Shown here one piece after another: positions 39,587-50,456 of a DNA stretch of 64,000 nt. The notes under the pieces are model-generated. The model saw only the letters and a program-made list of their open reading frames with translations. It did not search any database and was not told where the DNA came from. The first letter of the stretch is position 1, and each line of letters starts with the position of its first letter. The stretch is from an uncultured Nitrospiraceae bacterium (GTDB lineage: Bacteria > Nitrospirota > Thermodesulfovibrionia > Thermodesulfovibrionales > Dissulfurispiraceae). The stretch covers positions 96,001 to 160,000 of the forward strand of contig CAVPIW010000012.1 of assembly GCA_963705105.1 (NCBI GenBank), read 5' to 3'. A program made the translations under genes and the position numbers.

Positions 39587-40454
39587 ATGAAGAGGACATT
39601 GAAAGAACGCAGGGAAAAGCTGGGATTCTCGCTCCATGAGATCGCGCTGAAGACGAGGATCAGGGTCTCTTTTTTGAAGGCGATTGAGGAGGGGATGTAT
39701 GACGAACTCCCCGGTGACGTCTATGCCCGCGGGTATATCAAGGACTACGCCAGGTTCCTCGGCGTCCCCCCGGAAGCAGGAAATCGCTTCCTACGAAGAG
39801 CATCTCGCAAACAAAAAGATCGTGCCGGCGGAGGAGGAAAAAAAGGTCCAGCCTCAGGCCGACCGGGTAAGGAGCGTGAGGATGCCCGCAATCAGCTTCC
39901 CCCGGAGGCTCATGTGGGTCATGCCGGCGATTCTGGTCCTCCTCGTGGCGGTTGCGCTCGTGCAGTACAGGTACGGCGGAAACGCGGGCGTCCCCCGGAA
40001 GGCTTCCCCGGAGGCCCCTGTCAGCGCTCCCGTCAAGACTGACGAGAGCGTCGCTCAGCAGGGCGGCGAACAGGCCCCTTTGAAGCCGTCGCCGGAAGGC
40101 CCCGTCGCATCGGAGCGGGAAACCCGCAAGGATGGCCACAACCTCGATATCGTCGCGACCGATGCCGTCTGGCTCCAGGTCGTGATCGACAATGCCGACA
40201 AGAGGGAAATGCAGTTGCAGCCCGGTGAGCGGGTGTCCCTTTCCGCAAGAGAATCATTTGCGCTCAAGATCGGAAACGCCGGCGGCGTGAAACTGAAATT
40301 CGACGGCAGGGATTTCGAAAACCTGGGACAAAAAGGCCAGGTCATCAGGCTCCATCTTCCCGAAGCTGTCCCGCAGGGCATCACGACAGGACAGAACAGG
40401 TCCATTATCACGCCTGCCGAGGCCTCTTCTCAAACGATGCTGCGACAGCAGTAA
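39587..40454 (+). CDS. rodZ: RodZ-like protein (HTH + TM + DUF4115), frameshift near 39775
   Basis: AIEEG.YDELPG.VYARGYIK.YARFLG in one frame; TM and IGNAGGV..LGQKGQV in another. Confidence 0.8.
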
Positions 40455-40459
40455 GCCCC

Positions 40460-42382
40460 ATGAAATTCGGCACCGTCGGTGACCATCTCAATGCCAGGAC
40501 GGTCACTATATTCGCCATTCAGTTCCTCCTCGTCATGACCGTCCTCGGTTACCGCGCCTGGACGGACACGAGCATCGAGTGTGTCCGCTGCCACGGGGAC
40601 CGCCAGAAGATGGAGAAATACGGGTTCCCGGCCATGTATATGACGAGGGAGATGGTGGAGCGGGAATCGGGTCATCCCAATGTGCAGTGCCGTGATTGCC
40701 ATCTCGGCGACGGCAGGGCGAGGTCACCGGAAAAGGCCCACAAGGGCATGCTCGCCGTCCTCATTATCGACAATAACGGCGCCGTTCTGAAGAGGAAAGA
40801 CGTCCATCGTCGCGACCTCGTGCCGGAAGGTGAGGACAGGATCCGGGAGATGCTCCCGCAGGTTGCCGGGAACGGCGGACTAACCCCTCATCCCGATGTG
40901 CGGAATGTCCTGTGGCATGACAGGGACCCGGTCACGCTGAACTTCGATCCGGCCATCGCTGCGAAAACGTGCGGCAAACCGGACTGCCATCCGGAGGAGC
41001 TCAAACAATTCAGGACGACGGTCATGGGGGCCAATTTCCGGCAGAGGACCATGGTGACATGGCTGAAGCCTTACGGCCCTCAGAATTGAGGGCCCTCCTT
41101 CGCGGATCTGCCTCCGGCGGAGGCACTCACGGGAGCCGGCTTCTCATCTAAGAATACCGAAGAGATCAGGAAGGAAATCGCCGTCCCCTTTTCGCAGGAA
41201 CAGGCCGAGGCGAAACAACGCTTCTGCAACGTCTGCCACACGGGCTGCCTCGATTGCCACTACGCGCCGGACCGTGAAAAGGGTGTACACCATTTCCAGA
41301 ACAGGCCGCGCTCCGAGACCTGCGGCGGCTATGGAAGGGGCACGAGCATCTGCCATCCCGGCGCCATGCAGAGCAGGCGCGGAGAGACCTACATCGGGGG
41401 GGACTACTCGATCCCGACGGGTATGGAACCCGACGTGCATTACAAAAAGGACATCCACTGCGCCGACTGCCATAGCACCGGTGTGCGGGGCATGGGAGAC
41501 ATGCAGCGCAAGGCCCACTGCCAGGACTGCCATATCGAGATCGAAGAGGCCCATGCCGCAAGCATCCACCGCAACCTCGACTGCTCCACCTGCCATATCA
41601 ACGAACTGAGGGGCTACCAGGTCGTGATCTGGGGACCGGGCGAGGTGGCGGGCAAGGCAAATCCCTTCAAGAAGTATTCCCTCTATTACGGCATCCAGAA
41701 GCCCCCCATCCTCATGAAGGACCAGAAGGGGCGGTGGATGGCGGTGAAGGTCTTCCCGCACAGCGTCGGAAACATGGCGAACGATGTGGGACCGTCGGGA
41801 AAAGTGCAGTTCCGCTGGCCCGGCGGGGAGACGCGCGATCCCTATTACATCGTCGGGACCTTTTCCGCCCCCTCCAACAACAAACACCTCCTCTGGCTCG
41901 AGATTCAGCAGGCTTCACATCCCTACGGCAAGGGGAGGAGCTGCGGGAGCTGTCACGGTGACAGGCAGGTGACGACATCGCGGTGGGAGTATATGGACGA
42001 CCAGGGGGCGGCGGCGCCCTTCGCAGGCGGATACAGGATCGTCGCGGACAAGGACGGACTGCGCGTTGTCGATCTGCGCAGCACCTCGGAGATCAAACCG
42101 GCGCCGGGGTATAAACCGGAGGACTTCGCCGCGTGGCTCTATTTCAGGGACAAGTGGAGCATGCCCGGTGACTTCTCGATCAGCACTGAGAAGGAGAAAT
42201 ATGCGCGGTACCTGTCCCTGTCGAAGAAGATGGAGGTGGAGCTGAGAGAGATGGAAAAACGTGTCGGAAAGGATGACAAGAGGGCGCAGAAGAGATTCAA
42301 AGAGCTGAGGGGAGTGGTGCGTCACAACGAGGACAAGGCCCCCGACGCGATCGGCGCGTTCAGGGAGAAGGCGGGACGATGA
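40460..42382 (+). CDS. Multiheme c-type cytochrome, probable selenoprotein (TGA at 41087-41089)
   Basis: ORFs 40460-41089 and 41366-42382 are in frame; the gap is open and encodes CNVCH and CLDCH; 8 CxxCH + CX4CH + CX9CH in total; N-terminal TM/signal. Confidence 0.87.
41109..41125 (+). promoter_or_regulatory. Putative bacterial SECIS hairpin
   Basis: TGCCTCC-GGC-GGAGGCA stem-loop 19 nt after the in-frame TGA. Confidence 0.65.
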
Positions 42383-45657: not shown

Positions 45658-47871
<2,214 letters not shown>

Positions 47872-48315
47872 TCAGCCTTTTCTGCACTTGCTGCAGAGAC
47901 CCTCAAGCACTACCTTTTTACTTATCACCGTAAACTGTTTGTTGAGTTCTTCAGGGACCGTTATGTTGTCATACTCTTTGTTGTGAAAGTCTGTTATGCT
48001 GCCGCACTGAATACATCTGAAATGATGATGAATATCCACATCAGGATCATATCGCTTTGCCTGCCCGTACCCCTCAACTACATTTGTAATACCAATTGTC
48101 GAGAATGTCAGGAGAGTTCTGTTGACCGTATCGAATGAAATATTCGGTATCTTCTTGACGATTCTCTTATAAATGTCATCAGCAGTAGGGTGATCCTTTG
48201 CTTTCAGAAGTTCCTGATAAATGATGGTTCGCTGAGGAGTTATTTTCAGCCCGTGCTTCCTGGATCGCTGATAAAACATTTCTATTTTTTTATTTTGCTG
48301 TAATTTCGATTCCAT
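47872..48315 (-). CDS. perR: Fur family regulator, PerR-like
   Basis: GLKITPQR, HPTAD, HHHFRCIQCG, CSKC; upstream of katG. Confidence 0.82.
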   Translation of the reverse strand: MESKLQQNKKIEMFYQRSRKHGLKITPQRTIIYQELLKAKDHPTADDIYKRIVKKIPNISFDTVNRTLLTFSTIGITNVVEGYGQAKRYDPDVDIHHHFRCIQCGSITDFHNKEYDNITVPEELNKQFTVISKKVVLEGLCSKCRKG

Positions 48316-48322
48316 ATTGTAA

Positions 48323-48351
48323 ACTATATAGTAATAATTCTTAATTGTCAA
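48323..48351 (-). promoter_or_regulatory. Sigma70 promoter overlapped by Per/Fur-box-like site
   Basis: Minus strand TTGACA-17 nt-TATAGT; spacer contains TTAAGAATTATTACTA. Confidence 0.65.
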
Positions 48352-49182: not shown

Positions 49183-50456
49183 CAGTAGTGTCCGGTAAAA
49201 ATTAAGAGGGTATGGCCTGAAACCCCAACTTGTTGGATAATAGAAGGCGACCAAACCTTTTACCAGCAAGGAGGAACAGGCCATGAACAAAGTATACACG
49301 ATCTTTTCGGAACTATTGAAGCTTGTCCCGAGATATCGTTTTGACAAAGCAGTTGACGCCCACGGAGCGGAGCGATACGTGAAGACGTTCAACGCATGGA
49401 GCCACTTTACCGCCATGCTATATTCACAGATAACCGGCAAGGATAGCCTGCGCGACATCGAAACAGGACTGCAGGCGCAGTCGGCCCGCTGGTATCACTT
49501 GGGATTCTCCGGTGTTCGGCGAAGCACACTGGCTGATGCCAATGCCAAGAGAGACTATCGGGTCTTTGAGGACACGTTCTACCGGTTGCTGGATCGGTGC
49601 CGTGACCTGACGCCGAAGCATCGCTTTCGGTTCAAGAACCCTCTGTATACGATTGACGCAACGACAGTTGACCTGTGCCTTTCTCTGTATCCCTGGGCCA
49701 AATTCAGAACGACCAAGGGTGCCATAAAAATGCATTGTCTGTATGACCATTCGGGAGCACTCCCGACATTTCTGACAGTCACCGACGGCAAGAAACACGA
49801 TGTGCGTGTGGTCAAAGAGTCTGATTTCCCGCTGACTCCGGACAGCATCGTTTCGATCGACAAGGCATATATTGACTACACGTGGTTGTATTCCTTGCAG
49901 AAACAGAGGGTGTGGTTTGTCACCAGAGCCAAACGCAACATTGATTGTACCGTTGTCGGACAGCATCCGGTCAGTGCAAAAGCAGTGCTGAGCGACGAAC
50001 AGATCATGTTGCAGGGCCCCCGGAGCAAGACACTTTATCCAGAGGTTCTCCGGCTCATCAGGTATTACGATGCAGAACGGAAGAAGACCTTGGTGTTTCT
50101 GACGAACAACTTCAAGCTGGCCGCGACGACGATCGCCCAGATCTACAAGTCACGCTGGCAGATAGAGTTGTTTTTCAAGTGGATCAAACAGAACCTGAAG
50201 ATCAAGTCGTTTCTGGGTACCAGCAAGAACGCCGTGCTGACACAGGTCTGGGTAGCCATGTGCTATTATCTGCTGCTCAGCTACATCAAATATCAAACAA
50301 AATACGGAAGTTCTCTGCTGCAGTTGTGCCGTGTGGTCCGTGAAACGCTCTTTGAGCGGAGGAGCCTGATCGACATTCTGACGCTCAAGCCCGATAAGTT
50401 GCTCGCCATGAAGGATCAGAGCGCTCAGGGATCGTTATTTTAACCGGACAGTACTG
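49183..50456 (+). mobile_element. IS4-family element copy 1 (transposase 49283-50443)
   Basis: IRs CAGTAGTGTCCGG / CCGGACAGTACTG; IDATT, DKAY, YKSRWQIELFFKWIK. Confidence 0.95.

Follow-up and report, generated by a model that had tools for sequence, protein, structure and literature searches.

The window analysed here, a 64,000-nucleotide stretch of contig CAVPIW010000012.1 from an uncultured Nitrospiraceae bacterium, carries at 40460-42382 on the plus strand a multiheme c-type cytochrome gene that is very likely a recoded selenoprotein and apparently belongs to an uncatalogued, lysine-free, ten-heme branch of the octaheme tetrathionate reductase (OTR) superfamily. Multiheme enzymes containing selenocysteine (Sec, U), including Sec-OTRs, are already known. 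Open reading frame (ORF) calling with translation table 11 divides the gene into 40460-41089 (209 aa) and 41366-42382 (338 aa), which share a frame. A reading of this stretch made earlier from its letters alone, called the original prediction below, had proposed that the two ORFs are a single frame split only by a TGA. Indeed, 40460-42382 is one frame of 640 codons whose sole internal TGA is codon 210 (41087-41089). Read with TGA as U, it yields 640 residues with the context YGPQN-U-GPSFAD, and full-length homologs of ~640 aa and 55-70% identity match the whole of it. From the TGA to the following in-frame ATG there are 92 codons, and these contain two CxxCH heme motifs, CNVCH and CLDCH, as had been claimed, and the entire frame holds the expected eight CxxCH motifs plus one CX4CH (residues 171-177) and one CX9CH (288-299). 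U210 is the only Cys or Sec of the protein outside these motifs, in agreement with the position first proposed for it.

The column occupied by U210 is conserved throughout the family. Among the 120 best of 461 full-length database homologs it is Cys in every case, within the motif W-x4-G-P-[HQ]-N-C-G-P-S-F, and it is Cys or Sec in 43/43 diverse members, including paralogs at ~30-45% identity. In the DNA of close loci the motif was seen in 107 of 110 loci (84 distinct); the codon is TGA in 17 of the distinct loci (the window gene counted), TGC in 48 and TGT in 19. Trp or Arg, the other outcomes considered by the original prediction, occur in none of the 120 homologs or 84 distinct loci. A database search with the N-terminal half gave 55 hits, of which 51 stop exactly before this column, so the split annotation is widespread.

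The hairpin proposed downstream of the TGA was also recovered, as a 7-bp stem (41109-41115 with 41119-41125) that begins 19 nt past the codon and encloses a G-led loop, GGC. Hairpins were evaluated with a scorer of our own, built from the constraints in PMC13188914 and not bSECISearch, which accepts a stem-loop with a G-led loop of 3-9 nt, located 16-37 nt past the UGA, at an energy of -7.5 kcal/mol or lower. With its loop at +26 and an energy of -10.7 kcal/mol, the window hairpin fits the model of the bacterial Sec insertion sequence (SECIS) in the Fig. 2 legend of that paper. Hairpins at or below -7.5 kcal/mol are present in 16/17 TGA loci versus 3/67 Cys loci, and a G-led loop lies 26 nt past the codon in all 17 TGA loci. 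Across the genome, 161 of 3005 TGAs flanked by long open stretches pass the same scorer, so the hairpin alone is weak evidence for Sec; it is because the column is conserved and the hairpin is linked to the TGA that the observation goes beyond chance. In the aligned stems both sides have changed at 3 of 8 pairs with 95% of cells paired, and 0 of 500 shuffles scored as high, a result that is not a probability given that the rows are related sequences.

It is extremely improbable that the TGA instead reflects an error in sequencing, a genuine stop that divides the gene, or a pseudogene lesion. The assembly does hold an indel error 700 bp upstream, in rodZ, and the support for read-through is at the level of sequence. 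RNA runs contained only 0.05-0.16 of the sequence words. However, contigs from all four sequencing runs compared (four studies) carry identical letters at 41087-41089, which settles the concern about a base error; one of them (X2) is near-identical and may be the source, and the sole difference among the run contigs over 41030-41195 is T>C at 41107. The codon is also TGA in 32 other distinct loci of two lineages, with lineage-specific hairpins, and the 92 codons past it have no ATG yet retain two invariant heme motifs. As for rodZ itself (39587-40454), its apparent frameshift into two ORFs is attributed to the assembly because all four runs lack one base at 39774-39777.

The genome encodes the machinery whose presence the original prediction had proposed to check: selA, selB and selD score over cut-off (TIGR00474, TIGR00475 and TIGR00476) and tRNA-SeC(TCA) is located on contig C6. 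An in-frame TGA also occurs in its selD gene, and the hairpin behind that codon has a similar loop, GUC; two cytochrome c assembly genes are present. Among carrier genomes, selA was found in 29/29 tested and did not separate Sec from Cys forms. With these data, UGA210 is almost certainly recoded to selenocysteine.

Most of the close loci with named records belong to Nitrospirota (Thermodesulfovibrionales, Dissulfurispiraceae and magnetotactic lineages), and distant members include Calderihabitans maritimus and Hydrothermarchaeota archaea. In a sample of 301 Nitrospirota genomes, 122 carry the family and 157 carry dsrA; both occur in 116, the family only in 6 (five of them 65-85% complete), dsrA only in 41, and neither in 138. 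No member was found in the dsrA-free taxonomic families f21, f25, f26, f27 and f29 of this sample. The putative Sec form recurs in f22, a taxonomic family outside the window's class, where 47 of 54 matched genomes have one TGA inside the match. Sixteen of the 17 TGA-flagged f22 loci examined have TGA at the same column (GPNN-U-GPSF); the remaining one is a Cys paralog with a TGA upstream. In f22 the hairpin is built on another stem and has a GGUC loop, again at +26; nine of the 16 pass the scorer, which expects a perfect stem, and seven carry one mismatch.

In quick LG+G4 trees with the trait columns masked, the Sec forms near the window gene nest within a Cys clade. Several Cys forms nested among the Sec forms keep Gln208, and three of them (L016, L048 and L023) also keep the hairpin, which suggests reversion. 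A single clade of both Sec groups was rejected on the quick tree (approximately unbiased test, p-AU 0.0006, a value not fully a priori because three Cys rows were added to the tested group after the first tree and one more by taxonomy). The simpler reading is two gains of Sec at the same residue; the alternative is one old gain followed by many losses. Residue 208 (41081-41083) is itself of interest, being His in 59/67 Cys-type close loci and Gln in 16/17 Sec-type loci; in the f22 lineage, its Cys member included, it is Asn, as it is in f20. His208 may help to activate the thiol and be dispensable with a selenol, an idea confounded by ancestry.

Pfam and NCBIfam models gave no fit beyond the level of heme motifs, PDB sequence searches with protein and family queries did not find OTR and returned only heme-motif hits to NrfH/NrfA, and a natural Cys homolog used as query against the ESM Atlas matched only generically named cytochrome clusters. 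AlphaFold2 (AF2) gave confident models; the full-length one (pLDDT 86.9) comprises a hydrophobic helix at the N terminus, the heme region, a beta domain and, at the C terminus, a helical bundle. With this model Foldseek found nothing and VIA placed the OTR structure of Shewanella oneidensis, 1SP3, at only Z 7.3 amid helical-bundle hits, so the core (145-575) was refolded alone (pLDDT 90.8, pTM 0.91). On this predicted, heme-free model 1SP3 scored Z 9.9 in VIA (251 aligned, rmsd 4.5, 18% identity; next Z 4.0) and was the top Foldseek hit (E 4.7e-3, prob 0.92).

Profile comparison agrees with the structural match. In hhalign, against a partner set of OTR and OTR-like proteins from Nitrospirota genomes, motifs 3-9 fall on OTR hemes I-VII in local alignment and motif 10 on heme VIII in global alignment, at a probability of 98-99%. 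Because they are in register with OTR hemes, CX4CH and CX9CH are supported as true heme sites, and the same register identifies C256-H260 as the counterpart of OTR catalytic heme II. Spacings correspond as well: H153 lies 18 residues before C171 as H4 lies before C22, and M189 lies 12 after H177 as H38 lies after H26. From conservation in the OTR alignment, we take H4 and H38 to be OTR distal ligands and K56 to be its specific Lys ligand. Very probably the core has an OTR-related fold. The MmcA preprint (bioRxiv 10.1101/2023.04.20.537704) describes OTR heme II as Lys-ligated and that Lys, together with a cysteine, as features of the catalytic site. At the sequence level, no conserved Lys was found at the ligand position, which in OTR belongs to a GK motif ahead of INNFC, within the 25 residues before the Cys/Sec, either in 17 members or in the 43-member census. 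The features of the gene are as follows.

40460-42382 (+): ten-heme c-type cytochrome gene with its UGA predicted to be read as Sec; the frame ends at a stop TGA (42380-42382) that overlaps the start of rnr.
40493-40564 (+): predicted N-terminal membrane anchor helix, residues 12-35; a helix in AF2 and the top hydropathy window of the protein (KD 1.77).
40580-40702 (+): extra N-terminal diheme module, CxxCH 41-45 and 77-81, outside the OTR-like core; the OTR fold match begins at about residue 165.
40970-40990 (+): CX4CH heme motif 171-177, in register with OTR heme I and a canonical CxxCH in distant paralogs.
41024-41026 (+): M189, likely Met distal ligand; Met in 43/43 diverse members.
41087-41089 (+): Sec codon for U210; outside heme motifs no other Cys/Sec position is invariant across the family.
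41109-41125 (+): SECIS-type hairpin, 7-bp stem and G-led 3-nt loop that starts 26 nt past the UGA.
41225-41260 (+): paired CxxCH 256-260 and 263-267, the first of which falls in register with OTR catalytic heme II.
41321-41356 (+): CX9CH heme motif 288-299, in register with OTR heme IV; its two Cys are invariant.
41459-41596 (+): three CxxCH (334, 354, 375) that fall in register with OTR hemes V-VII; the DVH histidine shared with OTR (H327) comes before them.
41942-41956 (+): last CxxCH, 495-499, past the beta domain and matching OTR heme VIII; H487 is its likely distal ligand.

The diheme module has likely distal ligands in H72 (Met in most distant paralogs) and H94, and with its c-type hemes and N-terminal helix the protein is most likely membrane-anchored and facing the periplasm. 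The OTR model TIGR04315 (cut-off 375 bits) does not match the window protein, and it gives weak hits in 3/18 family members (best E 7.6e-5); the genome's own TIGR04315 matches are other loci. The genome also has two tandem, nearly identical nine-heme OTR-like proteins (C7:130333-131622 and C7:132989-134275) that fall below this cut-off and carry long Thr/Ser-rich N-terminal repeat domains. Some members of the window family are elaborated further, being fused to another multiheme domain (1152 aa) or bearing long Met/Pro-rich N-terminal tails (P0148, P0142 and P0145); certain distant members (P0123, P0128, P0129 and P0137), some of them from Hydrothermarchaeota archaea, have hydrophobic C-terminal tails, the CGP-led tail of P0123 resembling what we presume to be an archaeal sorting signal.

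The free cysteine of true OTRs appears to be replaced by Sec in some lineages as well. A targeted metagenome scan for the OTR motif INNFC with TGA in place of Cys gave 84 stretches; of 80 examined, 72 were multiheme frames, and 65 distinct putative Sec-OTR loci run on into the heme II motif 9 residues later, most of them with a hairpin. Judging from these frames, Sec already occurs within the OTR fold at the position of the free cysteine, and a Sec form of OTR is listed as 'GenBank annotated' in Table 1 of PMC13188914. Sec at the cysteine of the heme I-II loop, in two lineages of the window family and in true OTRs alike, points to thiol or selenol chemistry over plain heme-iron chemistry as what is central to these enzymes. 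A separate feature of the Sec-OTRs is a second Cys two residues before the heme II motif (C-x-CxxCH), within the SECIS-coding stretch, in 53 of the 65 distinct loci and in none of six Cys-type OTRs aligned; this Cys may serve to resolve a selenosulfide, or it may merely be a side effect of the hairpin.

On balance we favour, with moderate confidence, a membrane-anchored sulfur-redox enzyme built on the OTR-like core with U210 as its nucleophile, whether it works in reduction or oxidation. U210 sits in the loop between the equivalents of hemes I and II, as does OTR Cys64, and its location at the heme-II pocket is probable. In the proposed mechanism, the U210 selenolate would be the catalytic nucleophile beside the C256-H260 heme, and the enzyme would make or break sulfur-sulfur or sulfur-selenium bonds. 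The selenolate would attack the sulfane sulfur of a polysulfide, thiosulfate or polythionate to give, we infer, a selenosulfide; the other nine hemes, the anchor-side diheme module included, would exchange two electrons with a membrane carrier and thereby resolve it. This scheme is borrowed from the mechanisms proposed for MccSep (PMC13510729) and TsdA (PMC5146829), for which sulfur chemistry at a heme with Sec or Cys is established. That the substrate is a sulfur compound seems somewhat likelier than otherwise, and the presence of dsrA in 116 of the 122 carrier genomes counts in favour of this reading. The original prediction had suggested a periplasmic S/Se redox enzyme, and enzyme function and substrate are both inferred here as they were there. 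It had left open whether Sec is an axial ligand or a catalytic residue; a catalytic second-shell role is the better supported half of that proposal, because His and Met suffice for all ten distal sites, and axial ligation the less supported one.

Several observations weigh against this assignment. Alignment by hhalign does not place U210 on OTR Cys64, and the spacings differ: U210 follows M189 by 21 residues and the heme-II motif starts 46 residues further on (30-55 in paralogs), while OTR Cys64 is 26 after His38 and 10 before heme II. OTR itself acts in vitro mostly on nitrite and hydroxylamine and its deletion had no tetrathionate phenotype, according to PMC12949373, and its relative MmcA is described as a pure electron conduit (bioRxiv 10.1101/2023.04.20.537704). 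Selenium is not essential to the family, since most members use Cys, and the family has no second conserved cysteine outside the motifs, unlike MccSep. The association with dsrA tracks lineage and is not an independent test, and 41 dsrA-positive genomes had no match. Finally, at 80 close loci plus the window and at 36 further loci the neighbours are rodZ, fabF, rnr, radA or two-component genes, with no conserved redox partner or sulfur gene among them; the rodZ-rnr context had been said to give no hint of partners, and rodZ, fabF and rnr are indeed housekeeping synteny.

Other roles for U210 can be drawn from the same evidence. It is possible, although unlikely, that U210 supplies the C256-H260 heme with its sixth (axial) ligand, a His/Sec pair like the His/Cys pair of TsdA that would cycle on and off the iron. 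The near-universal distal candidates in the core, H153, M189, H277, H327, M/H345, H370 and H487, number seven for eight hemes, so that one position could fall to U210. The family does not conserve the OTR Lys and has no further conserved cysteine that might ligate in place of U210, and His/Cys hemes are typical of sulfur enzymes, as described in PMC13510729 and PMC5146829. However, the count is not clean, in that H365 (112/120 close homologs), position 434 (His/Met in 35/43) or position 430 (Lys/His in 42/43) could occupy the eighth site, and in MccSep and OTR the ligand is another residue: Sec is not the ligand in MccSep (PMC13510729), and in OTR the Lys ligates and the Cys does not (bioRxiv 10.1101/2023.04.20.537704). 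More doubtful again is that a small oxyanion or nitrogen compound (sulfite, nitrite, hydroxylamine or selenite) is reduced at an open heme with U210 tuning the pocket and making no covalent intermediate. OTR has nitrite and hydroxylamine reductase activity in vitro and a proposed role in sulfite reduction (PMC12949373), MccSep also reduces selenite (PMC13510729), and the family profile weakly matches pentaheme nitrite reductases in PDB (best E 1.9e-9); yet these NrfA matches are limited to the heme motifs, and the installation of Sec at the same residue in two separate lineages suggests that nucleophilicity matters.

A membrane-bound electron wire like MmcA, with ten six-coordinate hemes and U/C210 in a structural or redox-sensing role, we regard as very unlikely. 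At least ten non-motif His/Met candidates are available (H72, H94, H153, M189, H277, H327, M345, H365, H370 and H487), a membrane anchor is predicted, the catalytic Lys is absent and MmcA provides a precedent (bioRxiv 10.1101/2023.04.20.537704). The heme-II motif that MmcA has lost is, however, invariant in the window family. In addition, an invariant free Cys upgraded to Sec is unusual for an electron wire. A bolder and rather doubtful extension of the axial idea is that a natural selenolate-ligated heme (His/Sec, at the OTR heme-II position) evolved twice independently from His/Cys in a near-core membrane-bound sulfur-redox enzyme of dsrA-bearing Nitrospirota, an enzyme that might account for one of the periplasmic steps still missing from sulfur reduction or disproportionation in these bacteria.

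The family was not found in the 119-family selenoprotein catalogue of 2026 or among NCBIfam models. The cytochrome-type rows in Table 1 of PMC13188914 are only ExtKL, GSU2204 and OTR; the main text of the deep-Sep paper (PMC12013277) does not mention cytochrome or heme; and that of BSepDB (PMC13326102) does not mention heme, ExtKL or octaheme, although its supplement could list the family under a generic name. PMC11492766 had no bearing on the question. Our literature searches, whose coverage leaves out most subscription journals, returned no description of the family. Recognition of the recoded frame has the consequence that dozens of database entries are half-proteins, and it provides a natural Cys/Sec pair at ~67% identity for testing selenium at a heme active site. 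A lysine-free, membrane-anchored branch would also be added to the OTR superfamily, for which a physiological role is not settled; this branch is present in 116 of the 157 dsrA-positive Nitrospirota genomes sampled.

Elsewhere in the window, translations read by eye indicate a catalase-peroxidase-like gene (45658-47841, minus strand) adjoining a Fur/PerR-like regulator (47872-48351, minus strand), and an IS4-like transposase (49283-50443, plus strand). Elsewhere in the genome, a second heme ORF joined by a TGA (L178, contig C14 at ~82425, minus strand) was considered as a Sec gene and rejected; it encodes a repeat protein with several monoheme CxxCH domains, is broken by a frameshift and has no hairpin.

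Among known systems, the original prediction had named ExtKL as an example of Sec multiheme cytochromes; the class holds, but the closest structural relative is OTR instead. MccSep/ExtKL (GSU2937-2936 of Geobacter sulfurreducens) is likewise a multiheme c-type protein with one Sec outside its heme motifs, a gene that annotation splits in two, Cys-type homologs and an occurrence in Nitrospirota. It differs (PMC13510729) in having five CxxCH all before the Sec, the motif DG-U-P, a C-terminal domain that is Ig-like and, apart from the Sec, a Cys that ligates a heme. Identity with MccSep/ExtKL was rejected, as the window protein has no match to NF040886 at E<=1 and contains ten motifs with the Sec after the third; the genome's own two ExtKL genes give it motif-level BLAST hits only (best E 0.01). 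These two genes stand in tandem (C6:765276-766541 and C6:766951-768114). Each scores over the NF040886 cut-off and has an in-frame TGA with a hairpin beyond it; the second gene is divergent (TPDG-U-AW versus IPDG-U-PT). ExtN, ExtO and ExtM (NF040967, NF040968 and NF040943) were rejected too, at 33.7 bits against a cut-off of 200 over residues 237-379 only, and no ext operon was found among the neighbours of the loci examined.

MmcA of Methanosarcina acetivorans is, like the window protein, an OTR relative associated with the membrane, and it too has extended heme motifs and lacks the Lys ligand; it has lost the catalytic heme-II motif and serves as a conduit within the Rnf operon (bioRxiv 10.1101/2023.04.20.537704), whereas the window family keeps that motif and the invariant Cys/Sec and stands alone. 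TsdA, whose one active-site Cys lies at a heme and binds sulfur in a covalent adduct, and whose relay heme is Met-ligated (PMC5146829), is a mechanistic analogue only, since it is diheme, has no Sec and showed no sequence or fold match in the searches made. With OTR the family shares the core fold, eight hemes in the same order with matching spacings, the DVH motif, and one conserved free Cys in the heme I-II loop that is apparently Sec in some lineages. It departs from OTR in its ~18% identity, in having no conserved Lys ligand, in Met at distal positions 189 and 345, in two extra hemes, the CX4CH and CX9CH motifs and an extra invariant His277, and in a predicted N-terminal membrane anchor and C-terminal helical bundle; its Cys/Sec lies early in a longer loop, within GP[HQN]N-C/U-G where OTR has INNF-C/U.

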